Positions 1 to 63,287 of a stretch of 64,000 bases of DNA are shown here, piece after piece. The position numbers and the translations under genes are program-made. Below the pieces are notes generated by a model. That model saw only the letters and a program-made list of their open reading frames with translations. It was not told the DNA's origin and searched no databases. This DNA comes from a virus: the IMG/VR virus record IMGVR_UViG_3300045988_123612. The stretch is one strand, 5' to 3'. Numbering within the stretch: the first letter of the stretch is position 1; each line of letters opens with the position of its first letter.

Positions 1-31
1 TTCTGTAGAATCAGAGGAAGGGCAGAAATGG

Positions 32-2179
32 ATGTCTTTTATAGATATGCTGCTTGAATCTGGTGATTCTGAATTGCTACAGATGGGTCAAGATGACATA
101 CAAGATCTTAATGCGTATCTAACCAAGTTAGGTCTTGATCCGGCTTCGTATCAAGTATCGTATTTGAATCCTATTTCAGGGCTTAGAAAAGCTCGTGAGG
201 CTATAGAAAAATTATCTACGGTTCCTGATGTTGTTAAGTGGGTAGAAGATGAAAGCAGGAATGTGAAAGACATTGTGACGTCTGAAGTAGAATCTGGAAT
301 AGATTTCGAAGGTGAGATGTTTGTCGCTCCTAAGATCAGGATTCAGTTTGGCAAATCATCTTCCAGACCTAAATCGCTTATAGAGGATGATCTTCCTTTC
401 TCTGATGAGGGTAAGACCGTTACTTCTAAAGAAGACGTGGATGTTTATGAAGAGGAAATGCCAGAGGAAGGGGCTGCCCGGGAGACTCAGCCGGCGCCAT
501 TAGCTCAGCCGGCTCCTGCGGCACAAGCTACGCAGTCTTTACCTGGCAAGAAGCGTACCTCCAGGAAAAACTTCTCTCTTATGTTAAACGAAATAGAATC
601 TCATATAGAAAAAGAAGGATTGCCGTCTTATGCTAATATTTTTGATTTTATAGCAAGGAAGATTGTAGGAGGTGATTTGAGGTTTCTTCGTGAGAGAGGT
701 AATCCTAAAAGCCTTAAGGAGGAAATGGGATTAGAACCTAAAGGAACAGTAGGTGATAAAATATCCACTCCTTCCAGTAAAGGTGGTAAGACTTTAGAAG
801 AATATGTTTCTTGGCTTCGTTCTCAAACAGATCAGGTGGTGGTTGATTATGTTGGGCCAAGATATGATGAACAAATTATATCAGAGTTGAAAAACTTTTT
901 GAAATATATTGATTTTGTTCCAAGCAAGGCTTTGAATTATTCTCTTAGAGTCAATGGCATGGATACCCTAAAAGAATATGGCACAAAAGAGGAAGTAGAA
1001 AAAATGGAATCTGATATCAATAGTTTGGTTTCTAAAGTTTTTCCTACGGTGGATAATAAAACTGTAGAAGATGTTTCTACTGCAATAAAATCAAACAACT
1101 TGCCTGCCATATGGGAGCCTGTGGAAAGCCTTGATATGACAAACGAGGAAAAAATAGAGTTTTTGAATAACGTAGCAGATTTCCTTAGCGGCATACCAGA
1201 GTATGATGCTGTCGTGGAGTCTATAGAGTCAGAATCAGATAATATTTTAAATGATGGAAAAGAAGGAAGTGCAGAAGGCGGTGCAGTACGCACTGAGGAA
1301 GATGGCGATAAAAAGGGAGATGGAGAAGGCAAAGGACAATCCAGAACAAATGTCGAAGTTGAAAGAAATGTCGAATTACCTGGATCTGAAGAAGGAAGAG
1401 TAGATAACTATAGGAAGAACGGAAATAAGTTCTCTGACATTGCTGAAGTTACTTTATGGCTACTTAGAAGGGCTGCCGGTATAACCTCTATCCCGGAAGG
1501 AGAAGAGGTTTATGTAGAGGGAGATGAGGTTAATAGTATTATGACCGATATGGAATCAAGGTACGGGATAGACACCATCAACCACTCACATACGACTAAG
1601 GCTATAAGGGATCTTGACGGCGTGTCAGGTTATAAAGTAGAATACGGCTTAACCTTTTTGACATACGATCCTTTTATTAGAATATCCAATCCAAGGAAAG
1701 AATCTAAGGCTGCGAAAGACGAGCCTCGTATATCCGAAGAACCGCTTACTCACATATCAAGGGTGACAACCCCTTATTTCCTGTACGGCGGTGATGAAGC
1801 ATATACATCTGTTCCGGCTAAGGTAGAACCTATACCGGAGAAGATAATGGGTCGTAATGGCATTAAATTTGGTATGAGTGTAGTCGAGCTAACCAAATTA
1901 GGATACAAAAAAGCTGGTGGAAACTGGATATATAAATTCTATATGAACTCAGGTGTGTATGATTTGTATAATATCAGTACCGGTGAAGCGTTTAGGGCAA
2001 AACCGGATCTTGGAGTTAAGATAAGTTCCAGCGCATTCATCCGTTCTTTATCTCAATCTGGTAGGAAAATACAAAATATGATTAGTAATATGAGCCAGGA
2101 AGAGATAGATAGGAATAAGAATCTTGTAGAAGGTTCTGATAATTCGGATTCGATAAATGAGTTAAATAGGGAGTGTTAA
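32..2179 (+). CDS. hypothetical large protein (715 aa), possibly virion-associated
   Basis: Long ORF; RBS-like GAGGAAGGG ~10 nt upstream of ATG at 32; Pro/Ala-rich linker (QPAPLAQPAPAAQ); C-terminal codons are part of junction repeat B; frame is open to window edge so may be 5'-partial. Confidence 0.55.
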   Translation: MSFIDMLLESGDSELLQMGQDDIQDLNAYLTKLGLDPASYQVSYLNPISGLRKAREAIEKLSTVPDVVKWVEDESRNVKDIVTSEVESGIDFEGEMFVAPKIRIQFGKSSSRPKSLIEDDLPFSDEGKTVTSKEDVDVYEEEMPEEGAARETQPAPLAQPAPAAQATQSLPGKKRTSRKNFSLMLNEIESHIEKEGLPSYANIFDFIARKIVGGDLRFLRERGNPKSLKEEMGLEPKGTVGDKISTPSSKGGKTLEEYVSWLRSQTDQVVVDYVGPRYDEQIISELKNFLKYIDFVPSKALNYSLRVNGMDTLKEYGTKEEVEKMESDINSLVSKVFPTVDNKTVEDVSTAIKSNNLPAIWEPVESLDMTNEEKIEFLNNVADFLSGIPEYDAVVESIESESDNILNDGKEGSAEGGAVRTEEDGDKKGDGEGKGQSRTNVEVERNVELPGSEEGRVDNYRKNGNKFSDIAEVTLWLLRRAAGITSIPEGEEVYVEGDEVNSIMTDMESRYGIDTINHSHTTKAIRDLDGVSGYKVEYGLTFLTYDPFIRISNPRKESKAAKDEPRISEEPLTHISRVTTPYFLYGGDEAYTSVPAKVEPIPEKIMGRNGIKFGMSVVELTKLGYKKAGGNWIYKFYMNSGVYDLYNISTGEAFRAKPDLGVKISSSAFIRSLSQSGRKIQNMISNMSQEEIDRNKNLVEGSDNSDSINELNREC

Positions 2180-2194
2180 GTATGAGAAGGAGAT
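2148..2194 (+). repeat. junction repeat B copy 1 (ATTCGATAAATGAGTTAAATAGGGAGTGTTAAGTATGAGAAGGAGAT)
   Basis: Near-identical 47-nt copy at 2766-2812; contains last codons of an upstream ORF (SINELNxEC*), an AGGAG RBS and the ATG-AGA-AGG-AGA (MRRR) start of the downstream gene. Confidence 0.8.
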
Positions 2195-2712
2195 TTTTTA
2201 ATGCTGCGGATAATTTTGTGGGAGGATGTTATAATAAGTTATCCAATGAAGATATAAAAAGGCTTGGAGGAAAAAGACCTTATGTATGTCAGTTTAATAA
2301 AATTCATATACATATAGGGCCTGTATTAAAAGATCATGATTCCGATGTCAGTGATATAGTGTTTAATAGTGACTGGAATTATGGTAATTATGAATCTACG
2401 GTTTATCATCATAGCAATAATGGTATTTTTATATTAGGTGGAAATAAAATTGGTAATATAGAAGACCATATGCAAGATCTAACATATTGGTACGAATATG
2501 ATCCGAGTCTTAATGAAAATTATTGTTATTATTATTATGAAGCTGATAATAGTGGAAATGCTATTAAGTTGAATGGTGAGTTTAGTGATGTTAGCACTGT
2601 TTTTAACATTCCCAGTTTGAAAGTTACCACTCTTCGTGATGGCAGTTTGAGTTTTCCAGAGATTTATATAGAAGGAGTTTGGGATCCGTCATTGTATAAG
2701 TCGATTTTATAG
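2182..2712 (+). CDS. cassette protein 1, MRRRF N-terminus (176 aa), Asn/Tyr-rich
   Basis: ATG at 2182 preceded by GGGAG RBS (track ORF 2173 starts at in-frame GTG); flanked by repeat B (5') and repeat A (3'). Confidence 0.55.
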   Translation: MRRRFFNAADNFVGGCYNKLSNEDIKRLGGKRPYVCQFNKIHIHIGPVLKDHDSDVSDIVFNSDWNYGNYESTVYHHSNNGIFILGGNKIGNIEDHMQDLTYWYEYDPSLNENYCYYYYEADNSGNAIKLNGEFSDVSTVFNIPSLKVTTLRDGSLSFPEIYIEGVWDPSLYKSIL

Positions 2713-2713
2713 T

Positions 2714-2721
2714 TAATTTTG
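2714..2721 (+). promoter_or_regulatory. TAATTTTG, candidate Bacteroidetes-type -7 promoter motif (TAnnTTTG)
   Basis: Motif 18 nt upstream of repeat A1 and ~80 nt upstream of ATG 2800. Confidence 0.3.
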
Positions 2722-2738
2722 AAAAAAAAGTTAATTAT

Positions 2739-2812
2739 TATGGGTGTCAAATGTCAGATAGAAAAATTCGATAAATGAGTTAAATAAGGAGTGTTAAGTA
2801 TGAGAAGGAGAT
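2739..2812 (+). repeat. junction repeats A copy 1 (2739-2766) fused to B copy 2 (2766-2812)
   Basis: TATGGGTGTCAAATGTCAGATAGAAAAA recurs exactly at 3419-3446; B copy matches 2148-2194 with 1 mismatch; contains tandem TGTCA-N2-TGTCA. Confidence 0.8.
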
Positions 2813-3378
2813 ACGAAGATGTTTCAAGTCTTGTTCAGTATCAGTTGAAGACCAATCAGCAGGGGAATATAGAGGTTTATGTTGATGACAGGTTTGTTGG
2901 AAACGTAAGTGAAGGAGTCTGTAATTGGAAGGATGTTGAATACAAGAGTAAGGTTACTATATCTTTGAAAGGAGTCGAGGATAAGGCTAAAACTTCAAGT
3001 AAAAGAGTCGGTCCTTATTGTCACATTTATAGCATATTTGGAGGAAATGAATCTTATCATGCAGGTCCGGATAGTAATATAAAAAAGAGTCCGGTTACCA
3101 CCTTTATAATGTATTGTTATAAAAATGGGGATATTACAACTACCACTACTTATACTAAAAATTTATCTGGAACTCTTCAGATAGGTAAAACACAATTGAC
3201 TATCAATTACAAACAAAGTAAAAGTCAGTCTTTCTCCGGTGGTTCTGGAGATTATGTAACATCCGTATCTGATTTCCCTTTTGTTACTGGTCCAGGAAAT
3301 GATAGCGTTGAGTTCGAAGGAGAGGGAAGATTGATAGTTGAGACAGAGGCTTCGCATTATGAAATAGAAGTTTCATAA
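2800..3378 (+). CDS. cassette protein 2, MRRRY N-terminus (192 aa), Thr/Ser-rich
   Basis: ATG at 2800 in repeat B2 with AGGAG RBS; body unrelated to cassette protein 1; followed by repeat A2. Confidence 0.55.
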   Translation: MRRRYEDVSSLVQYQLKTNQQGNIEVYVDDRFVGNVSEGVCNWKDVEYKSKVTISLKGVEDKAKTSSKRVGPYCHIYSIFGGNESYHAGPDSNIKKSPVTTFIMYCYKNGDITTTTTYTKNLSGTLQIGKTQLTINYKQSKSQSFSGGSGDYVTSVSDFPFVTGPGNDSVEFEGEGRLIVETEASHYEIEVS

Positions 3379-3393
3379 TTTCTATTTTTATAC

Positions 3394-3401
3394 TATCTTT
3401 G
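3394..3401 (+). promoter_or_regulatory. TATCTTTG candidate -7 promoter motif
   Basis: TAnnTTTG 19 nt upstream of ATG 3420; lies inside the TTG-initiated track ORF (3399), which argues for the ATG 3420 start. Confidence 0.3.
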
Positions 3402-3418
3402 TCTAAAATATTTATCAC

Positions 3419-3446
3419 TATGGGTGTCAAATGTCAGATAGAAAAA
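3419..3446 (+). repeat. junction repeat A copy 2
   Basis: Exact 28-nt copy of 2739-2766; contains the ATG (3420) of the next large ORF. Confidence 0.8.
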
Positions 3447-5678
3447 AAGGAAAATGAAATAAAACGGGTTAAGGCTCCTAACGGGGAGCCTTCCGTTCTT
3501 TACGAAAGTGCTTTAAAAGTATTAGGAAACAGCGAGCGGGCTCTTCAGGTATGGGCTAAGGCTTACACTCCTGGTTTTTTGTCGTATTACGGTCATTGGA
3601 ATAACCCGGCTCCAGGGGAGATGTTTAACACCGATCCCAATGGCGAACCTCTTTTAGAAGATGTGCTGTCGTATATGAAGCGTCAGACTTATTTTGCTGA
3701 TCCTTTAACGGCTCAGGATGTTAAGGATGTAAGGGATTTCCTTTTGTCTACTCATTATTTTTTCAATGCGTCTTCATTGTCTAATGCTATTCTCTTCGAT
3801 TTTTATGTAGATGGCAGTTTGATACTGAATGAGCAGAAATTAAGGAGATCCGGTTTGTATGATGAAACAGAAATAAGTCGTATTTTATCCGATCCTTCTG
3901 TTTTAAACGAGGTTTCGACTTCCATGAGAAAGTTAATAGATTCTTCTATTAACGAACATGATAGGGAAAAAGATAATTATTTTATGTCTATTGACTATCA
4001 GTATGGTCCTATTGTTTACAAGGAGGGAGTGTTTAACCAATTTGGTAAAAAAGTACCATATAATCCTTCTGAGCTTTATTATGCTATGCGTAAAACAGTA
4101 GCCGGCATAAAAAACTTTTCTGAATTTTCATCTGCTTTTGAATCGTTGAGAAATTCATATCCTGAACTGGTTGAGAAATTCGTTTCTGATAAAGAATTTG
4201 CCGAATCTATGTTTGATGAGTTCTCATCTACGAATAAGATTCCGGTAATAAACATAGAAGGGGATGATGTGGTGGAAGGCAAGAGAAGATCTTTGTCTAA
4301 GCTACAAGATCTTTCTTATTACAATTCCGGCAAAATAGAGTTCCTAAGAGCTCGTATATCAGCTTATTTACATAGGGCTAATGCCGACACCGAATCCGAT
4401 TTAAGAAGCATGATATGGGATATAGAAGAGGCTTGTACGTGGTTTGGCATAGATATAATAGGGACATCGGAAACTTATGATGGCACAGAAGAATCTTTGA
4501 ATAAGATAGATAATTTGATGCTGGATCTTGATATTTATGTGGCCAGGCATAATGATGTAAATTATGCTCCAACGCTGGCATCTTCTATAGATGATGTTCT
4601 TGGTGATAGTACAGACTATTATTTTGGATTATTGCCGGAGTATATGGATAATTTGAATATCGTTTATTCTGAATCCGATATAGACCCAGTAGAGGCATTT
4701 GAGAAACATTCATTGCTTAAGGTAGGAGATAATCTATATCAAAGGATCAGCAAAGATGATCTTAACGAGATGTATCAAATATCAACAGTATTAGCCAAGC
4801 ACAACCTAACTCATTTTTCTACTAAAATATATCCTGAATCTTGTTTTAAGAACGGCGTTTTGGATAAAGAGAAAGTACGGAACGTAGATAATAATACGCT
4901 CATGGCTTCCATTAAAAAATACGTCAGATCGTTCATGGATTCTCAGAACACAGAGGACATGATAATGACCAGGATGGCGTTTGGGCACCCTGCGGTACTT
5001 GACGTTCCTTACGTGGATGTGGATCGGGAGTATAGTCGATACATGAACAAAAAACAAGATAGCGAAAACCCATTATCCTTATTCGATTTATACCAATCTT
5101 ACCTTGACAACAAACTCCATAAAACAAAATTATATGATAATGCCTATAAGTATCTTGACTTCAAACCTGGTCCATCTTTGGGTCTTATTTCTGATGATCC
5201 TGATATTTTGAAATCAATAGAATTATCTTTATCTGGAAAAGACAGGTTGATGTTGTTTGATTATAGCATGACCAGTACCGACCCTTCTTTATCAGAATTG
5301 TTTTATTTGGAGAAGTATGACCCTTCGTATGCCGGGAATGATTTTGAACACTATTTTTACACCAGGCACCCGTATTTGTTAAAAGAAAAATCGGGCCCTA
5401 ATATCGTAGAGCAAGATGGTGTTATAACAGCCGAAGGTATTTATGATAATTTTATAAGAGTAGGTAATAAGATATGGTCTAAAGTAAGCGAGAGTAGTTC
5501 CGGCTCTATCTACCAAAATCTGACAGGAACCGAATCAGAGGTGAAATACGATTCTACTCAGAAGGCTAAGACGGTAGAAACCGATTACGCTCCATACCAA
5601 AACAGATCTGGCTTGACGCAAGACATGACCGTAAGCAAGCCTGAATTGGATGATCTTAATAAATTGGAATGTAGGTAA
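3420..5678 (+). CDS. hypothetical large protein (752 aa)
   Basis: Long ORF; ATG inside repeat A2 (MGVKCQIEK...); no recognisable motif; followed by hairpin terminator. Confidence 0.55.
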   Translation: MGVKCQIEKKENEIKRVKAPNGEPSVLYESALKVLGNSERALQVWAKAYTPGFLSYYGHWNNPAPGEMFNTDPNGEPLLEDVLSYMKRQTYFADPLTAQDVKDVRDFLLSTHYFFNASSLSNAILFDFYVDGSLILNEQKLRRSGLYDETEISRILSDPSVLNEVSTSMRKLIDSSINEHDREKDNYFMSIDYQYGPIVYKEGVFNQFGKKVPYNPSELYYAMRKTVAGIKNFSEFSSAFESLRNSYPELVEKFVSDKEFAESMFDEFSSTNKIPVINIEGDDVVEGKRRSLSKLQDLSYYNSGKIEFLRARISAYLHRANADTESDLRSMIWDIEEACTWFGIDIIGTSETYDGTEESLNKIDNLMLDLDIYVARHNDVNYAPTLASSIDDVLGDSTDYYFGLLPEYMDNLNIVYSESDIDPVEAFEKHSLLKVGDNLYQRISKDDLNEMYQISTVLAKHNLTHFSTKIYPESCFKNGVLDKEKVRNVDNNTLMASIKKYVRSFMDSQNTEDMIMTRMAFGHPAVLDVPYVDVDREYSRYMNKKQDSENPLSLFDLYQSYLDNKLHKTKLYDNAYKYLDFKPGPSLGLISDDPDILKSIELSLSGKDRLMLFDYSMTSTDPSLSELFYLEKYDPSYAGNDFEHYFYTRHPYLLKEKSGPNIVEQDGVITAEGIYDNFIRVGNKIWSKVSESSSGSIYQNLTGTESEVKYDSTQKAKTVETDYAPYQNRSGLTQDMTVSKPELDDLNKLECR

Positions 5679-6386: not shown

Positions 6387-7040
6387 ATGGATAATACTTG
6401 TATTCCTTTTGTGTTAATAAACGACAGAAAAATGATTGACGCAAAACATGTTCATAAATTGTTAGAATGTAAGTATGATTTTAAACATTGGATTAAGGAT
6501 GTAATATCATCTTTTAATTTTAAGGATGTAATAGATTATATATCATATAGATATGATAATAATGGAGAACAAATAATAGATAATAATAGTCATGTATTTA
6601 GGCATGACTATTATTTATTCCCCAAATCGATTCTGTGTATCATCTATATGAAGTGTGATAGATCTTTATTTAAAGATTTTATTTATGATATATTTGATTG
6701 TTGTAATATTAAAAATGACGATCGGGTATTAGATATAATACATAGATCTATCGATAGGTATAATAAAAAATGTATAAAATATTTTACATATATAATAAGA
6801 AATAATAATAATGGTTTTTATAAAATAGGTAAAAGCTCTGATGTAAAAAGAAGGCTATCTGGGTTGTCTATTGTAGAAGATAACTTAACATTAATAGCTT
6901 ATGTGAATAAAGATATAGAGAGCGAGCTTCATGCAAGATTTGATATCAAAGGGATATACAGAGAATGGTTCAACTTATCAGATTGCGATTTGAATGATAT
7001 AATTGATAAATATAAATTCAAGTTGTGTGACATGGCTTGA
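6387..7040 (+). CDS. T5orf172 (GIY-YIG-like) domain protein, Bro-like
   Basis: C-terminal motif FYKIGKSSDVKRRLSGL matches T5orf172/MUG113 signature (YKIGxT.d..RRL); Asn/Ile-rich N-terminal region. Confidence 0.5.
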   Translation: MDNTCIPFVLINDRKMIDAKHVHKLLECKYDFKHWIKDVISSFNFKDVIDYISYRYDNNGEQIIDNNSHVFRHDYYLFPKSILCIIYMKCDRSLFKDFIYDIFDCCNIKNDDRVLDIIHRSIDRYNKKCIKYFTYIIRNNNNGFYKIGKSSDVKRRLSGLSIVEDNLTLIAYVNKDIESELHARFDIKGIYREWFNLSDCDLNDIIDKYKFKLCDMA

Positions 7041-14052: not shown

Positions 14053-17000
14053 ATGACATCAACGTGTATTATTAAAAGAGATAATAAAAAGAAAGTTGTT
14101 TCTGTCTCTACCAGATCAGGGGACAGGTCTATGTTGTTTGATAAAATAGCATCTATTCCTCTTATGGAGAACAGGGAACGGGCTACTACTGTTTTTAAAA
14201 CCGTATTTTCTAATAAGTTCTTAAAGGCTTTTGGCGACTGGAGAAGGAATGTACCTGTTAATAAACAGGCCTACAATAAGGTGAAATCCAACATCGATCT
14301 TATTCCGGAAGCCTATAGGGAAAGGGTGCTGGATAAGGCTTCTAAGATGAGTAACCCTGTTCTTGTGTCAAAATCAGATGCACCTTATGAAATCCAAGAA
14401 TCGGGCTTTGGATTCTACAGCCAAAATCTGGGTGATAATATTATGTTGGTGGATGCTATGGTCCCGTCAAGTATTTCCGTACCGGAAGGACCTGGAATAG
14501 ACGCCGGGCAGTATCTACAAGATGCTATATCTTCGGACTTCACTCCCGTATCTATGGTACAGGATAAGGGTGTTAATTATATGGTTATAAAAGACGGTCT
14601 TAAGATATTTAGCCCAGAAGAGTTACCACAGACAGATTCTAATCCTGTGGGTGTAACGTATCAGACCGGAGAGCCTCGTTTGTTTTTCATGAACGATCGT
14701 AGTCAATTATTTGAAGATTACGGAGAAGCTCTTCGCTCTGGCGGGAATGATATTAGAATAGGATTCTTATCAGGCACCGTTCAAGAATCTGCCTGGGATG
14801 GCGTGGCAGACATTACTTACAAAGCTGGAAAGTATGTTCTTAATAATCCCAAGTCTTTTATACCGGTCATGACCGCTTCTGCTTCTACTTCTTTATCAAC
14901 AAAAGGCGGGATAATTAACTACCTTATAAAGAAAGGTCTTTTGTCAGGATCTAAGATATTCGATCCTGAAACAAGAAGCTATTATCTTACAGGAGAAGGT
15001 CATACAGGACAAATTAGACTTTTCAATTCAGCCTTATCATACACTGAGCTCCGTAATCATTTTGGTTCCGATGTTTCCATGAACGACCAGGGTATGATAA
15101 CCATAAGCTCGTTGGATAACAGTAAGGTAACTATGAGACTTGCCACCGGAGGAACGGAAAGGGTTAGTAGGGAACAGATAAAGAACGATCTTAAGTCAGG
15201 AAGATACAATGAATTGGACGCCAAGTACGATCATTTTGATGCGCTTGTAGTTTCATTCATATTAGAAGACAACGATCTTTATGCTGATACTAAAGCTAAG
15301 ATCGTATCAGATTATAGCAGGCAGGAACGTGATCAACGAAATTCTATTGTCGAGATACTGAAAACTCTTGGCGTTAGTGTCATAGGTATGACCGACTATA
15401 TAGAGAAGTACCAAACCAAATACGGGCATGAACCTTCTGCTAAGGCATTGGCGGATATTGCCAATAACGTAATAGCAGTTGGTGAAGATGCTACTTTATC
15501 CGATTTAGTAGAAGAAACAGCCCACTTCCTTGTAGAGGCATACAGAGATCAGAATGCTGTTGAGGCTGTTCTGCAAGATGTAGAAGGTACGGAAGAGTGG
15601 AACCAATATGCAGGTCAGTATTATAATACATACGGTAAGGTATATGAAGGCTCTGAACTTGATAATGCTGTTAGGAGAGAAATTCTTGGAAAGATCCTCG
15701 CCAGGGAGATGCAGACCGGCACAGCACAGGCGCCGGTAGAGCCCACCTCCTTCCTGGGGAGCGTCCGGCAGCTTCTCTCTGGAATAGTAAGCTGGCTTAA
15801 ATCAACTTTATCTACCCAAAGACAAGATTTGAATAACGTTATTAAAAACATTCGTGATCTTGCCATTACCGACATAGATAAAGGATTTGACACCTCTCTG
15901 TTAAAGGATAATGACTTTACATTATACTCCCTTTCTTCTATGAACAAGAACAAGTTTCTTGAGTCCAAGATCAGATCACTAAGAAAAACATTAAGAGACT
16001 TACGTCAGATAAGCTCTGATAGGGCTGTAACTACGTCTATGACCCTTGCTCAGCTTAAGACCATAGAAGATAAGATAAATAAGGTAGAGACCGAAATAGA
16101 CAAGAATGAGATGGCGGCTGCCATGAACAGCATGATCTCCACAGCCGAAGCTCAGGTCAGATACTTAAGTAATGTGGTGAACACCATCCTTCATGGTGAT
16201 ACCAAAGACGGCAAGCTTCATTTCAATACCAATGATCGAAAGAACGTAGATATTATCAACAATCAGGTTCTTCCGATCATGAACGATCTTCGAGGATATA
16301 TCCGTAACAGAAGTACCGAATTTGATGAACGTGAAAAGCAGGATTATACAAATAGGATCAATACCGTCATTGCCGACATCAATGGTATTCAGTCTGATAT
16401 TAAATCAGTACAAGACCTTGATGAAAGCACGTTGCTTGATAAGTTAATGAACGAACTTCATGTGCCGGCAGATAAGGTAAAGAGAGTAAAAGAATTTTTC
16501 GACAAGGTTCAACACGATGTTTCTTGGATAAGTAGGTGGTTTGGTATATTAGAGCATTCTTCCAGTCCGTTCAATAACGCTCTTGGAGCTATGATTGCCA
16601 AAGACAATTACAATGCGATGGTGAATGCCCAGCCCGCCATATCCGACTTCCTGGCATATGCGAAAAAGCATGGTTTTAACAAATCTGAATTTGAAAAACT
16701 GCTTCAGAAAGTAGACGGCAAAACTTCTAATTACCTTCGTAGTGCTCTTGATATGGCTAAATACGATCGTAATAAGAAGCTGGCGCAGATGCGAGCGTTT
16801 GCGACTGCCATGAACATAGAGATATCAGAAGAAGAAATTGGTGATGTGGTTGACAATAACCGTAATTACGTATTTAAAAGAGAAGTAGTTGACAAGGATG
16901 GAAATACGGTTACTGAAAACGCTAAATTCAAACCATCGTCTGATAGAGTTAATACCGATATTTTTACCATCGAGCAGGAAAAGATCTATACAGAGCAGAT

Positions 17001-20000
17001 GGAAAAGTGGGATGCTGAAAATTCGGAACTGGAATTTAGCGAAAGTTATGCCACAAGAATGGAATCCATATACAAAAAGGCTGAAGAAGAATTAGGGCAT
17101 CCGGTTTCTCAAACAACCAAAGAATACCTTAATGCTCTATCCAGGCAAAAACGGATATTGAGGCAGCCTTTTATTGATAGCGGTGGTAATTTTGATGAGG
17201 CCTCCTATTTTAAAAGCAGCAATTACGAAGAAGAAGGACTGCTTCGTAAACAACGTAAGGAAGCAGCTTCAGAATACATATATGTAGGAACCAGGAGAGT
17301 GGAAAAAACCGGCGACCAACTTAAGATGGCCAAAGAAATACAAGCCATAAATGAAGTTTGGAGAAAGGAATCAAATAATGTCACTAATGCCGTATCAGAA
17401 TCGTTTTTGCAAAAATTAAGAACGATTCAGAGCGAGTCTGGAGGAGAAGCTGCGCTGAAGACGCTTATGTTGGGGGGTCACCTGTCATTCAACGATCGGT
17501 TTTGGAATGACGTAGAATCAGAACAGTCGGCGCGTACCGAATCAAATAACAAGGCTTCGTATCTTAAAATGGCGCATGATATCATTAGTTCTACGACAAG
17601 TGATAGAGATGCGACTGACGTGGATTCGATTGTGAAAGATATAGAAAAAAATAAGGCCATTATCAAGGAAATAATCGGAAACAACCGAGATGTGGCTGAT
17701 ATCGGAGAAATTAACGAAGCGACATTTACCTCATCTGAAAGAGATGCTTTTAGGGCCGCATCTGAAGCTATTGAAGCTGATTACGCTATCTTAATAGATT
17801 ATGCTAAGATGGTGGGTCTTGAAGATATTGATAAGTACCTTACTAAAAGCAGTAAGGCCGAAAACGAAGTAAATCAGTCTTATTTAAATGCTCTTGCTGA
17901 CTCCAAGGAAGTGGAATGGAAGTTCGTACAACGTCATACTACGGCGAAGAAAGCAAAAAGGATTCAGGCTTTAAGGGATAAGCTGTTTAAGGCTGCTGAT
18001 AACCGATATCTGTTTACCGTATCTGAAACCAACTACCTGTCAGAAAAGCTTGGTATAAGCAAAGAATTAGACGGTAGAGATTTTAGGAATGCTGTCAATA
18101 CTAAGATGGCCAGCTTGTTTTTAAATAACACAAGAGAATCAGGTATAGAAGAGGCTAATGCTATTGTTAATGAATTTGCCAGAAGTCAAGTCTTTTCATA
18201 TTACAAACGCATGACTCCTACCGGATATGCGGCTATGCTTGGTAAAATAGGTCGAGGTGAGATAGACGTGGCACAGATGGTTAAAGACGTACAGAACGGG
18301 ACATCCACACAAGATTATGGTATGAATATATCGTACCTGTCTTTCGACCCTGCAAGAGCGTGGGTGGCTGAATCTGAAGCTGAAAATAGCGGTCGTAACC
18401 CAGATTATGTAAAAGATCATGGGTATGGTTATCGTATGCCCAAGAAGAGCCTGTATCGTGATGAATCGTATTTCAATGACTTCGGCATTAGATATGATGC
18501 TGATGGTAATGAGATTGCTACTAAAAACGTAGAGCAATGGAATATGATTCAAAAACTTAAGGAAATAAAAAGACAATCCCTTTCCTTATACAAAGAGCAG
18601 AGCCCCAATTTGTATGCTATTCCACAGATATCCAAACAAGATATAGAACGTATGGAGGGATTGGGTATCAACTTCAAAAATACGGTTCGTAATTTTGTAT
18701 CAGATCTCTGTCTGGACAGAGTAGACGATTCTCTATACGGTAAAACCAGACAAGGGGAAGTATATGATCCAGAAGATAGGATTAGGTCTATACCTAAATA
18801 CTACATATATGAATTAGAGAACCAAGATGACGTATCTCATGATTTTGGTTATTCTTATTCGATGCTTATGATGCAATCATCGTTATACAACGAAAAGCAG
18901 AAGTCTATAGAGCTTGCCCAAGGACTGGAGCAGATGTTACTGAATAAGCAATTTGAAGGCGGTAAGAAAGCTGAGGCAACTCAAGCATACCAGATGTTTA
19001 GAGACTTCTTTAATGACCATTATTATGGCATTAGGATGAACACCAAGAAACTTACGGTTAACATCGGTGGATACACGATAGATCTTACAAGAATTATGAT
19101 GGCCGTTGAAAGATTTATGTCGGTCATGAACTTAGCGCTGTCTCCGTTTGTGGCAGCTACCGGCGCCCTGACAGGTCATATCAACCTCATCATGGAATCT
19201 GCCGTAGGACAGTATATAAGCAAAGACTCCCTTAAATACGCATCGGCTGAGTTTTCACGTCTTGCGCCATCTTGTATAGCAGAAACCGGAGACATAGATA
19301 GGAAAAGCAAATTATATGTCATAGGTGAGAGAATGGGGATATTCAATATCCGAAATCGTATGTATGGTGCCGGATACAATAGAGCGGCCAGGACCTTAAT
19401 GCGTTCGCCTATGTATGCTTTTATGGAAATCCTGAACTACCCTCTTGATCCGCAGGTTATGATTGCTACTATGGACAATGTTCGTTATTACAAAGGCCGG
19501 TTCTACACGTTCCAAGATTTCAAGATGGAAAAAGAACGCAATAAAGAACAGAGTACCATAAAAAGAGAATGGAACGCATTAAAAGATCGTACTTTATGGA
19601 GTATGGTAGACGTCGTGGATGGAAAGGTGGTTGTAAAGCCGGGATCGGGTGTTACTGTTGAGGAAGTTGAAACCCAGATGGCTATAACCAGGAATCAAGT
19701 CCGTAGCTTGTCGCAGATATGTAACGGATCTTTGAATGAAGAAAACCGAACTGCCGCATCGCGCAACTGGATAGCCAGGTTCATGACCGCCCACCGAGGC
19801 TGGCTGGTGCTGGCAGCTCAACGTCTGTGGAAAAGACGTGGCTTCAATTTCCAGACAATGCAAGAAGAGGAAGGGTTGTCAATTACGTTAAAGAATATGA
19901 TAGCCAAAACATTTAGCCTGGCTTCCGAGTCTGGTATGAAAAACATCATAGATGCCTGGAACGAAAATAAAAACAATATGAATGAGGTAGAAAAAACTAA

Positions 20001-20475
20001 TCTCAAACGCCTCAGTGTCTATGCCGGCACGTTCCTTATCATGCAAGCCGTATCCATGCTTCTTGCCGGATGGCGTGATGATGATGAAAACGAAGAAAGT
20101 TGGCTTACTCAATTTGGATCTTACGTTGGATTCAGAACCATAAACGAAATAGCTTCACAGATGCCGTTTATTATGGAGCTTAACGTTGTAGATATCATTA
20201 ACGACCCGTTTGTTATGGGAAGGAAGCTGAAGGATCTTACCGATCTTAGGAATTATTCACTTGATAAAGTAACATCCGGTACATACAAAGGAGAGTCTAA
20301 GCTATTTAGGCAACTCGCCAAACAGACGTTTATCAAACAATGGTATAATATCAAGACGCCGGAAGACGTAGCGCGCGCCTATAATTGGTGGCAGCAGACA
20401 AACAACAAGTCAATGATGTTCTTCATCGGCGCTACTCCTGATTCGGAAGGAGACGATGACGTTAGTTACAAATAG
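14053..20475 (+). CDS. giant hypothetical protein (2140 aa), possibly virion-packaged/ejection or tail-associated
   Basis: Single uninterrupted 6.4-kb ORF; mostly Asp/Glu/Lys-rich alpha-helical stretches; hydrophobic segment near C-terminus (LSVYAGTFLIMQAVSMLLAGW); no catalytic motif recognised. Confidence 0.6.
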   Translation: MTSTCIIKRDNKKKVVSVSTRSGDRSMLFDKIASIPLMENRERATTVFKTVFSNKFLKAFGDWRRNVPVNKQAYNKVKSNIDLIPEAYRERVLDKASKMSNPVLVSKSDAPYEIQESGFGFYSQNLGDNIMLVDAMVPSSISVPEGPGIDAGQYLQDAISSDFTPVSMVQDKGVNYMVIKDGLKIFSPEELPQTDSNPVGVTYQTGEPRLFFMNDRSQLFEDYGEALRSGGNDIRIGFLSGTVQESAWDGVADITYKAGKYVLNNPKSFIPVMTASASTSLSTKGGIINYLIKKGLLSGSKIFDPETRSYYLTGEGHTGQIRLFNSALSYTELRNHFGSDVSMNDQGMITISSLDNSKVTMRLATGGTERVSREQIKNDLKSGRYNELDAKYDHFDALVVSFILEDNDLYADTKAKIVSDYSRQERDQRNSIVEILKTLGVSVIGMTDYIEKYQTKYGHEPSAKALADIANNVIAVGEDATLSDLVEETAHFLVEAYRDQNAVEAVLQDVEGTEEWNQYAGQYYNTYGKVYEGSELDNAVRREILGKILAREMQTGTAQAPVEPTSFLGSVRQLLSGIVSWLKSTLSTQRQDLNNVIKNIRDLAITDIDKGFDTSLLKDNDFTLYSLSSMNKNKFLESKIRSLRKTLRDLRQISSDRAVTTSMTLAQLKTIEDKINKVETEIDKNEMAAAMNSMISTAEAQVRYLSNVVNTILHGDTKDGKLHFNTNDRKNVDIINNQVLPIMNDLRGYIRNRSTEFDEREKQDYTNRINTVIADINGIQSDIKSVQDLDESTLLDKLMNELHVPADKVKRVKEFFDKVQHDVSWISRWFGILEHSSSPFNNALGAMIAKDNYNAMVNAQPAISDFLAYAKKHGFNKSEFEKLLQKVDGKTSNYLRSALDMAKYDRNKKLAQMRAFATAMNIEISEEEIGDVVDNNRNYVFKREVVDKDGNTVTENAKFKPSSDRVNTDIFTIEQEKIYTEQMEKWDAENSELEFSESYATRMESIYKKAEEELGHPVSQTTKEYLNALSRQKRILRQPFIDSGGNFDEASYFKSSNYEEEGLLRKQRKEAASEYIYVGTRRVEKTGDQLKMAKEIQAINEVWRKESNNVTNAVSESFLQKLRTIQSESGGEAALKTLMLGGHLSFNDRFWNDVESEQSARTESNNKASYLKMAHDIISSTTSDRDATDVDSIVKDIEKNKAIIKEIIGNNRDVADIGEINEATFTSSERDAFRAASEAIEADYAILIDYAKMVGLEDIDKYLTKSSKAENEVNQSYLNALADSKEVEWKFVQRHTTAKKAKRIQALRDKLFKAADNRYLFTVSETNYLSEKLGISKELDGRDFRNAVNTKMASLFLNNTRESGIEEANAIVNEFARSQVFSYYKRMTPTGYAAMLGKIGRGEIDVAQMVKDVQNGTSTQDYGMNISYLSFDPARAWVAESEAENSGRNPDYVKDHGYGYRMPKKSLYRDESYFNDFGIRYDADGNEIATKNVEQWNMIQKLKEIKRQSLSLYKEQSPNLYAIPQISKQDIERMEGLGINFKNTVRNFVSDLCLDRVDDSLYGKTRQGEVYDPEDRIRSIPKYYIYELENQDDVSHDFGYSYSMLMMQSSLYNEKQKSIELAQGLEQMLLNKQFEGGKKAEATQAYQMFRDFFNDHYYGIRMNTKKLTVNIGGYTIDLTRIMMAVERFMSVMNLALSPFVAATGALTGHINLIMESAVGQYISKDSLKYASAEFSRLAPSCIAETGDIDRKSKLYVIGERMGIFNIRNRMYGAGYNRAARTLMRSPMYAFMEILNYPLDPQVMIATMDNVRYYKGRFYTFQDFKMEKERNKEQSTIKREWNALKDRTLWSMVDVVDGKVVVKPGSGVTVEEVETQMAITRNQVRSLSQICNGSLNEENRTAASRNWIARFMTAHRGWLVLAAQRLWKRRGFNFQTMQEEEGLSITLKNMIAKTFSLASESGMKNIIDAWNENKNNMNEVEKTNLKRLSVYAGTFLIMQAVSMLLAGWRDDDENEESWLTQFGSYVGFRTINEIASQMPFIMELNVVDIINDPFVMGRKLKDLTDLRNYSLDKVTSGTYKGESKLFRQLAKQTFIKQWYNIKTPEDVARAYNWWQQTNNKSMMFFIGATPDSEGDDDVSYK

Positions 20476-20689: not shown

Positions 20690-21307
20690 ATGAGACGAAG
20701 ATTTCAAATAGGGATGGGGGTAAATCCCTCGCTTATAATCAATAAAGGCATATACATCCAACATGTAGATGGAGGATTATATACAAAAGAAAATTGGTCT
20801 AATAAAGGATATTCCAATGATCTATGCAATGGAATAGCTCTTGTAGATAAAGTGTGTTTTGTTATAGCCACCGAATATATTGGCACATTTCGTTGGGGTA
20901 AGGATGGAAAAATAGACAATATATTTGCACAAGATAGTTCTCATATGGGAACTGTTAAAAAGGATTATTGGGGGCGTGAAAATCAGAATGCGTATCTTGA
21001 ATATGATACCAGTAATACAGATTACGCTTTTAATAAAGCTAATAGCTATTTATTTAAAAATGGTCAAAATGGATATGTAGGTGGCGCCGGAGAGTTTTTT
21101 TTGATATCATTGTATGCGAATGAAATAAACGAATGCCTTTTAATGGTAGGAGGTACGATAATGAGTAATAAAATGTGGACATCCACTCAATCTACACAAT
21201 TTACCTATTCGTGGTATTATGATATAAACATCCAAGGAGATCATTTGGATACAAGTACAAGGAGTAATCCACGTTATGTCCGCCCCTTTACCGAATTAAT
21301 TTTATGA
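20690..21307 (+). CDS. hypothetical protein with MRRRF N-terminus (205 aa), Asn/Tyr/Gly-rich
   Basis: ATG 20690 (MRRRFQIGMG) downstream of terminator; track ORF from 20603 would span the terminator hairpin. Confidence 0.5.
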   Translation: MRRRFQIGMGVNPSLIINKGIYIQHVDGGLYTKENWSNKGYSNDLCNGIALVDKVCFVIATEYIGTFRWGKDGKIDNIFAQDSSHMGTVKKDYWGRENQNAYLEYDTSNTDYAFNKANSYLFKNGQNGYVGGAGEFFLISLYANEINECLLMVGGTIMSNKMWTSTQSTQFTYSWYYDINIQGDHLDTSTRSNPRYVRPFTELIL

Positions 21308-21311
21308 AATT

Positions 21312-21446
21312 ATGAGAAGAAGATTTGAAAATAATGCTAAACTATATGAGTATAAGATAGTTAGCGATTGTATAGGGGGGGGTAATCGTAGAAGGAAAGA
21401 AAGTAGGCACCATTCCACAGGGCGGGCAATTTATCTTTCTGTCTAA
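21312..21446 (+). CDS. small ORF with MRRRF N-terminus (44 aa) containing a G8 homopolymer
   Basis: ATG-AGA-AGA-AGA-TTT start; G8 tract at 21375-21382 encodes GGG; below track threshold. Confidence 0.25.
   Translation: MRRRFENNAKLYEYKIVSDCIGGGNRRRKESRHHSTGRAIYLSV
21375..21382 (+). repeat. poly-G (G8) homopolymeric tract
   Basis: Eight consecutive G in an AT-rich region, inside the small MRRRF ORF. Confidence 0.6.
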
Positions 21447-21489
21447 AAAAGAACGGCTGGATTCCATAAGTGTCCAAGGCGGTGTTCCA

Positions 21490-22047
21490 ATGGAAGATAG
21501 GCAAGAGATCGATAGTCAGGTTGATACGACAGAGGAATTGCTTGAACAGGATTCGGTGGTTCTTGCTATTGCTTTAACAACCTCTCCTTATTATGGATTT
21601 AGAGTAAGTGTGATAGCACCTGATGAGTTTACGCTAAGAACAACCAATAGGATTAATAGAACCTTTTTAATAACAAGCTTTACTCCACCTGCTGCTATAT
21701 ACGGTGTAAACTTTGGTGATCCTATTGTCCTTAATTATGATAGTTACCAATATGAGATGCCAGATCTTGTAATTGATGGACCTCATGATAGAATAGTTAG
21801 GGCAGATCCTAATCTTACTTGGGTTGTAAGATGTACAGACGCCGACTTTAAACCTTTGCCATATCCAGAATCATGGTCTGGCCAAGGTTTAAATTCTATG
21901 TTCTTATCAGATATGAAACGTCTTGCTCCTGGTGATCATCATGTATCATATACAGCTTATATTAATTTGGACTTGATAAATGATGGCGGAAGTAAAGTTC
22001 ATACTGAATATCTGATATTAGAAAAAACACTTAATTTTACGATATGA
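21490..22047 (+). CDS. hypothetical protein (185 aa)
   Basis: Last plus-strand ORF before convergent terminator. Confidence 0.45.
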   Translation: MEDRQEIDSQVDTTEELLEQDSVVLAIALTTSPYYGFRVSVIAPDEFTLRTTNRINRTFLITSFTPPAAIYGVNFGDPIVLNYDSYQYEMPDLVIDGPHDRIVRADPNLTWVVRCTDADFKPLPYPESWSGQGLNSMFLSDMKRLAPGDHHVSYTAYINLDLINDGGSKVHTEYLILEKTLNFTI

Positions 22048-22050
22048 CAA

Positions 22051-22089
22051 CAATCCCCAACCGTACGCCTATTGTATGGTTGGGGATTG
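22051..22089. terminator. bidirectional terminator between convergent gene blocks
   Basis: CAATCCCCAACC/GGTTGGGGATTG 12-bp perfect stem, 15-nt loop, exactly between plus block end (22047) and minus block end (22137). Confidence 0.6.
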
Positions 22090-22136
22090 TTGTAGTTACC
22101 ATCTTTTCTTGTATAAGCAGAACATGAAATAAGTTT

Positions 22137-63040: not shown

Positions 63041-63287
63041 CGCAGATGGGAGCATTCTGTCTAAAGCATAAGAAAATTAATGAAGAAATTTTTCTCACTT
63101 ACGCCATAGCATCTAAAATAGCTATCAGCACTATTTCTATGACAAACATAATAGAAAATATCTTAAATGCCTTTTTCATATCGCTATCTCCTCCTTTTTA
63201 TTTTTTTTTAGTTCCACAATAAACTGTTCCGGCTCTGCTCCGACCTACGTTCCACCTACAACCGCAGGCCTTAGCCCAAGGCGCCGC

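Follow-up and report, generated by a model that had tools for sequence, protein, structure and literature searches.

Two unrelated genes as alternative occupants of one site, and their tandem, in an epsilon crAss-like phage of the human gut

What brings two small genes with dissimilar bodies side by side in a phage genome, each framed by the same pair of short repeats? The question is raised by a stretch of 64,000 nucleotides (nt) from the IMG/VR virus record IMGVR_UViG_3300045988_123612 (hereafter the window, meaning this whole stretch), where two genes that we call X and Y lie between the large open reading frames (ORFs) ORF1 and ORF3. The phage is an epsilon crAss-like virus from the human gut, and its nearest GenBank relative is crAssE-Sib (entered as csAssE-Sib; OR575929, 151 kb, human gut), which likewise belongs to the epsilon crAss-like viruses, in the proposed genus Epsilonunovirus (PMC11054128). 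An original prediction had taken the locus for an array of swappable cassettes, each bounded by a conserved element B on the 5′ side and an element A on the 3′ side. We consider it probable that X and Y are alternative genes at a hyperplastic site, that their tandem arose through microhomology-mediated unequal recombination, and, with lower confidence, that both are head-tagged, tail-associated host-interaction modules. The argument turns on the following features of the window:

2182 to 2712, plus strand: gene X, 176 amino acids, N terminus MRRRFF; an orphan accessory gene and the majority allele at the site
2800 to 3378, plus strand: gene Y, 192 amino acids, N terminus MRRRYE; the alternative allele, and the sole gene here in crAssE-Sib
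2148 to 2194, plus strand: B1, the true last 11 codons of ORF1 with the stop, then 2 nt of spacer and 13 nt from the start of X (ATGAGAAGGAGAT)
2739 to 2766, plus strand: A1, a duplicate ORF3 start (ATG at 2740 plus 8 codons), broken within an A7 run and joined to B2
2766 to 2812, plus strand: B2, a nonfunctional duplicate of the ORF1 tail, followed by 13 nt from the start of Y
2740 to 2778, plus strand: remnant ORF of 12 codons, MGVKCQIEKFDK and a stop, the product of the A1-B2 junction
3419 to 3446, plus strand: A2, the true ORF3 start
1 to 2179, plus strand: 3′ part of ORF1, a giant gene of ~2208 amino acids annotated as "structural protein" in crAssE-Sib, C terminus ...SDSINELNREC
3420 to 5678, plus strand: ORF3, a conserved large protein of 752 amino acids, N terminus MGVKCQIEKK, C terminus LNKLECR

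The repeats themselves were found as described in the original prediction: B is present twice over 47 nt with one mismatch (2148-2194 and 2766-2812; G2169 versus A2787), A is present twice over 28 nt without any (2739-2766 and 3419-3446), and A1 and B2 are directly fused, with the single base A2766 common to both. A weaker similarity (76%) runs 38 nt further 5′ of A, and none of 100 dinucleotide-preserving shuffles gave a match to A or B. The meaning given to these repeats has to be revised, however. B had been read as the tail of an ORF1-like gene, but B1 is the genuine 3′ end of ORF1 (SINELNREC and the stop at 2179) and only B2 is a nonfunctional copy; A had been said to contain the ATG of the downstream large ORF, which holds for A2 (ATG at 3420, the start annotated in crAssE-Sib), while A1 carries a mere duplicate. 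We therefore read A and B as the ends of two conserved flanking genes, the ORF3 start and the ORF1 end, and not as dedicated cassette sites; single-cassette genomes carry one B and one A for this very reason. Instead of bounding every cassette, these gene ends would have been duplicated once, in the event that formed the tandem. By themselves, the A and B repeats are an ordinary recombination scar.

This reading bears directly on the idea of a dedicated site-specific cassette system, akin to an integron or shufflon, in which A and B would serve as the sites of a phage recombinase. The A-B fusion does superficially resemble a cassette boundary, and the two junction classes described below use the same point in A. 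We nevertheless regard such a system as very unlikely: A and B are coding ends of ORF3 and ORF1; no further copy of either, and hence none of the additional B- and A-bounded cassettes that had been anticipated, was found in the 64-kb window with up to 3 mismatches allowed; neither element contains an inverted repeat; no integrase or invertase is present among the neighboring genes; and the B-side breakpoints of the two junction classes lie 33 nt apart. The larger arrays of relatives, with up to 7 genes, likewise have no A-B scars between their genes, contrary to the predicted array pattern. The fold of the junction region was no better than that of shuffled sequence (z = −1.4).

Gene content at the site varies widely among close relatives. 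Scanning IMG/VR for exact matches to the core of A yielded 118 loci, and a scan for broken A copies added 3. Among ~100 related IMG/VR loci, X alone was present at 60 (7 with an extra insertion) and Y alone at 23 (3 with an insertion), while both genes were found in tandem in the order X-Y at 6 loci, including the window, and in the order Y-X at 9; X-X or Y-Y tandems were absent from this set. The absence may be due to a collapse of homotypic tandems, which duplications of X or of Y would be expected to undergo via their ~600 bp of homology. X and Y are the only two cassette types in the close clade. In crAssE-Sib, the order is ORF1-Y-ORF3, and the window aligns with it on both sides with exactly 618 extra bases that carry X (2148-2765 or 2195-2812); these amount to X with A1 or, counted the other way, to X with one copy of B. 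The tandem thus differs from single-cassette genomes only by one cassette and the duplicated gene ends. Upon clustering the upstream and downstream 800 nt into haplotypes, we found the X and Y states mixed within clusters, from which it follows that recombination carries the cassette from one background to another; X and Y are moved in this way by homologous recombination within the flanking genes. X and Y hence behave as alternative alleles, that is, as mutually exclusive unrelated sequences at one site whose state is uncoupled from the phylogeny of the flanks. Far from being identical in all relatives, the locus occurs with X, Y, X-Y, Y-X, no gene, an antirepressor-like gene, or up to 7 genes; the cassette exchange that had been predicted is in this sense borne out, although A and B are not the cassette boundaries.

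Could X and Y instead be the products of a tandem duplication of one gene followed by divergence, or a paralogous pair behind a conserved promoter or ribosome-binding site? Both start with MRRR, they are similar in size, and both are predicted to be mostly beta-strand, the latter from models with a predicted local distance difference test (pLDDT) score of 32. The bodies, however, are dissimilar: BLASTP detected no similarity between X and Y beyond MRRR (E > 2), and in a profile-profile comparison residues 1-6 alone aligned. Bodies that differ even profile-to-profile, between flanking repeats that are 98-100% identical, are not what a simple duplication would leave, as the original prediction had argued. 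In addition, X-only and Y-only genomes are common states, and the conserved upstream sequence is ORF1 coding sequence rather than a promoter or ribosome-binding site. We accordingly give a duplication origin only the slightest probability.

The variability of the site extends to distant relatives, which we ordered by their ORF3 identity to the window. The interval between ORF1 and ORF3 is empty at 70% identity, with a 26-nt spacer, and again at 33% and 23%, where in the latter case the gap between ORF1 and ORF3 is 3 nt; the abutting arrangement is likely the ancestral state (empty sites were seen in the relatives L121, L196, and L195). At 53% identity, by comparison, one relative (L132) carries seven MRRR[FY] genes and another (L133) a different set with one gene inverted, at 47% two contigs with the same ORF3 sequence differ in the interval, one holding a KilA-N/ANT gene and the other a Bro-N/ANT gene, and at 43% the interval holds a 152-residue MRRRY gene. 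These comparisons mark the ORF1-ORF3 interval as a hyperplastic insertion site in epsilon crAss-like phages.

Mobile elements were also observed in this interval. Three different IS605/TnpB elements are inserted there in more than 10 contigs, with TnpB proteins of 408-410 amino acids (plus strand), 379 amino acids (minus strand), and 407 amino acids (minus strand). Insertions lie just 5′ of the ORF3 ATG (L016, L018, L043, L046, L092, L094, L096, and L105) or at the stop codon of Y (L012, L019, and L057), with a further carrier in L102 and possibly one in L056. One TnpB class inserts exactly between ...TTATTATG and ATGGGTG, thereby preserving the ORF3 start, and a TnpB-less remnant of ~250 bp occupies the same point in L065. 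About 3 kb downstream, another two-allele replacement was seen: window 6387-7040 encodes an AntA plus T5orf172/MUG113 (GIY-YIG-like) protein, whereas the counterpart in crAssE-Sib (record 95605-96489) is a Bro-N/ANT-type "antirepressor." The same alternation of AntA-T5orf172 and Bro-N/ANT distinguishes L122 from L123, whose ORF3 sequences are identical.

How the tandem formed can be approached from its junctions, of which only two sequences exist, each identical in all its carriers. J1, found in X-Y genomes, joins ...CAGATAGAAAAA to TTCGATAAATGAG..., and J2, found in Y-X genomes, joins ...CAGATAGAAAAA to TAAGAATCTCGTAGAAGGTTCTGATAATTCGGATTCGATAAAT.... Both break ORF3 within the A7 run of codons 8-10, at ...CAGATAGAAAAA, whereas in the ORF1 tail their breakpoints are separated by the 33 nt mentioned above; the microhomology at the joins amounts to 1-2 nt. 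A GATA-containing 6- to 7-mer match is located 4-7 nt 5′ of the joins (AGATAGA for J2, TCnGATA for J1) and is at most a plausible reason for the shared breakpoint, with the caveat that it was noticed after the fact and in a GATA-rich stretch. The uniformity of the junctions suggests that each class arose once.

J1 was present in 5 IMG/VR contigs besides the window, from at least two datasets, and J2 in 9. Since identical junctions recur in carriers from several datasets, an assembly artefact can be set aside. A contig wrongly assembled from a mixed population would be conceivable in view of X-type and Y-type phages both being common and probably co-occurring, but the A-B junction is a novel sequence that must be present in reads. 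Moreover, an independent Logan contig was found to encode a chimera in frame, X(1-63)::Y(141-192), whose two parts meet at an AGT microhomology. By its structure, this chimera matches the product expected when an X-J1-Y tandem collapses, and it is derivable only from an X-Y tandem. We give a chimeric assembly practically no credence.

We propose that the tandem originated when an X-type genome and a Y-type genome underwent illegitimate, unequal recombination through microhomology, or a template switch, e.g., during co-infection or within concatemers; this would have joined codon 9 of ORF3 (within the A7 run) to the 11th-from-last codon of ORF1. One such event would generate the duplicated copies of both A and B, and would thereby put Y behind a copy of the promoter-like leader of ORF3 and the 12-codon remnant ORF. 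Subsequent recombination between the two B copies would produce a Y-only genome, and recombination between the two A copies an X-only genome. Because the repeats permit a return to either single state, the tandem may be viewed as a carrier of both alleles.

A different route to the same arrangements would start from one ancestral duplication (J2), after which recombination between the A or the B repeats would excise mini-circles that re-integrate by homology at B or A, yielding both gene orders, with J1 derived from J2 by a 33-nt deletion. The identical break in A for J1 and J2 fits this scheme, as do the fact that J1 equals J2 minus 33 nt flanked by AT, the rampant recombination in this population, and the precedent of the mini-circles proposed for the T4-type promoter-early stem-loop (PeSL) elements (PMC2839356). 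Yet the scheme needs an additional deletion step, the internal homologies measure just 28 and 47 nt, two substitutions (ATAAATAAG and AAAC) are present in B2 of J2 but not in that of J1, and the expected intermediates X-J2-Y, X-X, and Y-Y number 0 among ~130 loci. We consider this route unlikely, and continue with unequal recombination between X-type and Y-type genomes as the preferred origin.

The two genes that alternate at the site are orphans confined to the clade of the window. Both are under purifying selection, with ratios of nonsynonymous to synonymous polymorphism (pN/pS) of 0.21 for X (47 unique copies) and 0.32 for Y (24 unique copies). About 15-20% of the copies of X and Y are disrupted, and neither gene is therefore essential. 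The guanine-cytosine (GC) content of X is 30.9%, versus 37-40% in the flanking genes. Neither X nor Y had a significant match in Pfam or PHROGs, and an exhaustive profile search for remote homologues of X in 1.84 billion representative proteins found none, returning X itself, fragments of X, and one marginal repetitive match. AlphaFold2 models, built on alignments of 15 homologues for X and 10 for Y, were unusable (mean pLDDT of 31.8 and 32.3, respectively).

Several kinds of damaged or altered copies were observed. A T6 tract directly after the head of X (window 2194-2199) varies in length among contigs: T5 (3 contigs) and T7 (2 contigs) put X out of frame, while one contig has a T9 tract with AGG that keeps the frame. 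The T5 version of X, frameshifted, is found in two Y-X tandems. Many distinct in-frame internal deletions of X and Y occur in independent assemblies (P0014-P0025, P0047-P0052, P0056, L137, and L138), and several of these have a common left breakpoint, for example behind ...IMFNS in X (window 2370) or behind ...DIEYK in Y.

As for expression, the ATG of X lies 2 nt past the ORF1 stop, and X is therefore probably co-transcribed with ORF1. A fusion of X to ORF1 by frameshifting or readthrough was ruled out, both by stops in the X frame 4 codons 5′ of the ATG and by the offset between the ORF1 stop and the small-gene ATG, which differs among relatives (5 nt versus 4 nt). Two signals that had been suggested to reside in the repeats are better explained as coding sequence. 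The putative ribosome-binding site AGGAG corresponds to the ORF1 codons K/R-E-C, which are replaced by KPC, KDC, or RNC in relatives, and Shine-Dalgarno pairing is in any case little used by Bacteroidetes. The candidate operator TGTCA-N2-TGTCA is not conserved as a repeat; what remains is the second TGTCA alone, which is kept because it codes for Cys-Gln of ORF3. A TAnnTTTG box, which matches the Bacteroides-type −7 promoter consensus, was found at −24 to −29 of ORF3 in all relatives examined and in both copies in the window:

2714 to 2721, plus strand: TAnnTTTG match TAATTTTG, 26 nt 5′ of the duplicated ORF3 start in A1; a consensus match only
3394 to 3401, plus strand: TAnnTTTG match TATCTTTG, 26 nt 5′ of the true ORF3 start in A2; likewise by consensus alone

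No terminator-like hairpin was detected between X, Y, and ORF3, and matches to sigma-70-type promoters were not above chance, with a tool that does not cover Bacteroidetes or phage-RNA-polymerase promoters. The sole terminator-like match in 1900-3700 is a perfect 9-bp GC-rich hairpin at 3471-3492 (AAGGCTCCTAACGGGGAGCCTT), followed by a T-rich stretch, within codons 18-25 of ORF3.

The genes on either side of the site are far more constant than what lies between them. ORF1 homologues (2104-2213 amino acids) stand directly 5′ of the variable site in every relative examined, and the ORF3 homologues form a graded series from 95% to 22% identity. ORF1 and ORF3 are conserved large genes of the virion operon. 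Neither the ORF1 C terminus nor ORF3 had a significant match in Pfam or PHROGs, and a sequence search of the PDB with the two giant proteins and one Gly_rich_2 member gave nothing useful. We did note the C termini of ORF1 and ORF3, which read ...NELNREC in ORF1 (window 2150-2179) and ...DLNKLECR in ORF3 (5650-5678). Relatives retain [EL]-[LI]-N-[KR]-x-C at the ORF1 end, the single ORF3 end that was checked in relatives (L132/L133) reads ...LGKLEC, and the Cys at ORF3 residue 5 is retained within the motif MG[VLI][KA]CQ (window 3420-3440). These large proteins could thus share a conserved terminal Cys motif.

What, then, might X and Y do? The ATG-AGA-AGG-AGA start noticed in the original prediction turned out to be a real common feature, in the form of an MRRR[F/Y] N terminus carried by many unrelated genes. 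We found this head on at least 11 accessory families in the clade that are mutually unrelated by BLASTP, and, antirepressor-like genes aside, all array genes in the ORF1-ORF3 interval start with it. The Arg codons of the head vary synonymously (AGA, AGG, CGA, CGG, and CGT), and hence selection acts on the peptide and not on the DNA; the same variation weakens the idea that the head is a DNA-level signal for recombination or translation. That replacements have their boundary at the head is uninformative, as the similarity of unrelated genes must end where the shared head ends. A twin-arginine translocation (Tat) signal of the RRxF type was ruled out, there being no hydrophobic segment after the head.

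Genes with this head are also found far from the site of X and Y. In crAssE-Sib, they lie at record positions 63285, 109702, and 110324, and the window contains two more:

20690 to 21307, plus strand: third MRRRF-headed gene, 205 amino acids, downstream of a second giant gene (14053-20475, 2140 amino acids)
21312 to 22047, plus strand: fourth MRRRF-headed gene, frameshifted at a G8 tract (21375-21382); crAssE-Sib has a different MRRRF gene here

This region, 3′ of the giant gene at 14053-20475, constitutes a second site of cassette replacement (window 20690-22120 versus crAssE-Sib record 109702-111113). The 205-residue MRRRF gene is present in both genomes, and the next gene has the same start (ATGAGAAGAAGATTTGAAAATA) in both and then continues with unrelated sequence, to ~245 amino acids in the window versus 149 amino acids in crAssE-Sib.

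Poly-G tracts proved to be closely associated with the head. All tracts of at least G8 in the ~330 kb surveyed lie within or just 5′ of an MRRR[F/Y]-headed gene, with one in the window (21375-21382), one in crAssE-Sib (record 63256), and three each in L132 and L133, at these positions:

L132: 6442, 7120, and 9014
L133: 543, 1218, and 1958

For the window gene at 21312, the tract was compared among 55 IMG/VR relatives. It was G10 in 20 (16 of which keep the 245-residue ORF intact), G9 in 21 and G8 in 10 (all truncated; G8 is also the state of the window), and G7 and G11 in one each. This tract looks like a phase-variable contingency tract, for which homopolymer sequencing error would be an alternative explanation. 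Neither this set of head-tagged genes nor its exclusive link with poly-G tracts appears to have been described so far, and the passages of the crAssE-Sib paper retrieved by a term search are silent on both (PMC11054128).

The functional proposal for X and Y derives from these other head-bearing family members. Where classification is possible, their matches are to the Pfam family Gly_rich_2 and to PHROG families annotated as minor tail protein and tail fiber assembly, and a 386-residue member matches a PHROG tail-protein family as well as the C terminus of a 2494-position PHROG profile. One candidate, W205 as a lectin-like protein, was dropped because its Lcl_C/DUF1566 match was not significant (E = 1.3). 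We suggest that the MRRR[F/Y] head may act as a common docking peptide and that X, Y, and their kin may be tail-associated host-interaction modules docked by it, a part of our reading in which we have lower confidence. A precedent for docking of this kind is the fibre protein gp22 of crAss001, which docks in the hub via its N-terminal residues 1-26 (PMC10172136).

Alternatively, X, Y, and the other MRRR[FY] proteins could be small cargo proteins that travel inside the capsid and enter the host upon ejection, perhaps to act as anti-defence effectors, with the head as a packaging signal comparable to the capsid-targeting sequence of T4 internal proteins. The position of the genes agrees with such a role: they directly follow giant genes, in a block that by position corresponds to the cargo and RNA-polymerase proteins of crassviruses (PMC10172136). 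Being orphan, dispensable, and of fast turnover, they would also suit it in character. The internal-protein loci of T4 are similarly polymorphic. Arguing the other way, the classifiable head-bearing proteins match tail families and a glycine-rich domain rather than known effectors, poly-G phase variation is best documented in receptor-binding genes, and the head is 5 residues long with no protease cleavage motif evident. On balance, we think a cargo role rather improbable, though still a serious rival, and prefer tail-associated host-interaction modules.

Of the systems described elsewhere, those closest to the locus in mode of operation are the hyperplastic regions found in T4-type phages, together with the moron concept. 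In T4-type hyperplastic regions, modular shuffling is mediated by PeSLs (Arbiol et al. 2010, PMC2839356). As at the present locus, phages that are otherwise almost identical differ there, at fixed positions between genes, in whether an orphan nonessential gene is found, missing, or exchanged for another; the cassettes have short conserved sequences on either side, and excision and re-insertion can proceed via direct repeats. The T4 PeSL, however, is a dispersed ~100-bp motif of promoter and terminator with many copies per genome, whereas the repeats studied here are duplicated ends of neighboring genes, with A and B present twice each at one locus in 64 kb. It also contains a stem-loop terminator, where we found no terminator hairpin between the genes and a promoter-like TAnnTTTG box 5′ of A; and the element common to the cassettes is here, in contrast to PeSL, a coding head of 5 residues. 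The moron concept goes back to Juhala and Hendrix and to lambdoid phages. Like morons, X and Y are extra genes between genes that are adjacent in relatives (the empty sites above), with a differing base composition in the case of X, and dispensable. Unlike a moron, X has no promoter and terminator pair of its own that we could detect and sits 2 nt past the ORF1 stop, and two alternatives co-circulate here together with both tandem orders.

Two other comparisons concern the head. Receptor-binding proteins with a conserved anchor, as in crAss001 gp22 (PMC10172136), share with the head-tagged proteins a constant N terminus on unrelated bodies, matches of some members to tail families, and repertoires that differ between close relatives; the constant part is here just 5 residues, however, and a location in the virion is putative. 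The internal proteins of T4 offer a parallel as well, in that a short common N-terminal tag is carried by unrelated small proteins encoded at a polymorphic locus. In T4, the capsid-targeting sequence spans ~10 residues, and the prohead protease cleaves it off at a defined motif; a motif of that kind is not apparent here, and packaging is putative.

The locus is not an integron, shufflon, PeSL, or diversity-generating retroelement (DGR) target, as defining features of each of these systems were looked for and not found. Integron cassettes are likewise tandem unrelated small genes with repeated boundary sequences, but the locus has no integrase among the flanking ORFs and annotations, no attI, and no attC-like imperfect inverted repeat, and its boundaries are fragments of flanking genes; IntegronFinder is named in the methods of the crAssE-Sib paper (PMC11054128). 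As to a DGR, the repeats at the locus are A and B alone, with no pair of template and variable repeat, and the DGR of the clade lies ~45 kb away, at a different gene in crAssE-Sib. Phage contingency loci, which are hypermutable homopolymer tracts (bioRxiv 10.1101/2025.10.21.683753) and include the poly-G tracts of Campylobacter phages, resemble what we see in the G8-G12 tracts in or just 5′ of MRRR[FY] genes and in their length variation within the population. This likeness concerns the neighboring head-tagged genes and not the A and B repeats; X has a T6 tract only, and switching within one lineage is putative.

Several observations weigh against the reading of X and Y as alternative, head-tagged host-interaction modules brought together by unequal recombination. 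The disrupted copies of X and Y make both genes nonessential. Their assignment to a tail or adhesin role comes solely from the 5-residue head and from the other proteins that bear it, X and Y themselves having no detectable homologues or domains and AlphaFold2 models with a pLDDT of 32 for both, and none of the crAss001 fibre genes has an MRRR head. The site lies in a block of giant proteins that matches, by position, the ejected cargo and RNA-polymerase proteins, which a cargo role would fit equally well. On the side of the mechanism, the recombination event is reconstructed from its product, with no parental pair identified. J1 and J2 break ORF3 within 1 nt of each other, and given this near-identical break and the 33-nt relation between the junctions, a single origin with later cassette swapping is possible. 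Last, the TAnnTTTG box in the leader placed before Y matches a consensus and nothing more.

Crassvirales outnumber all other viruses in the human gut, their tracking of hosts is poorly understood, and most of them, the whole epsilon group included, are uncultured. The present locus shows variation in gene content at nucleotide resolution in a natural population of the epsilon group, with two alternative genes, tandems of them in either order, and chimeras, deletions, and insertions of TnpB elements, all at one site. Above the A/B scar, it is the wider MRRR[F/Y] pattern that is worth following. We entertain, as a tentative and rather doubtful generalization, that epsilon crAss-like phages may plug unrelated, interchangeable host-interaction modules into the virion via a universal MRRR[F/Y] tag, the modules being arrayed at a few hot spots 3′ of giant virion-protein genes, where recombination would gain, lose, swap, and duplicate them and where many would be switched by poly-G tracts. 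If true, this would amount to a modular, phase-variable host-range repertoire that is new for Crassvirales. The combination of head and poly-G tract in any case provides a testable handle on the host-interaction genes of these phages and on how their virions accept exchangeable modules.

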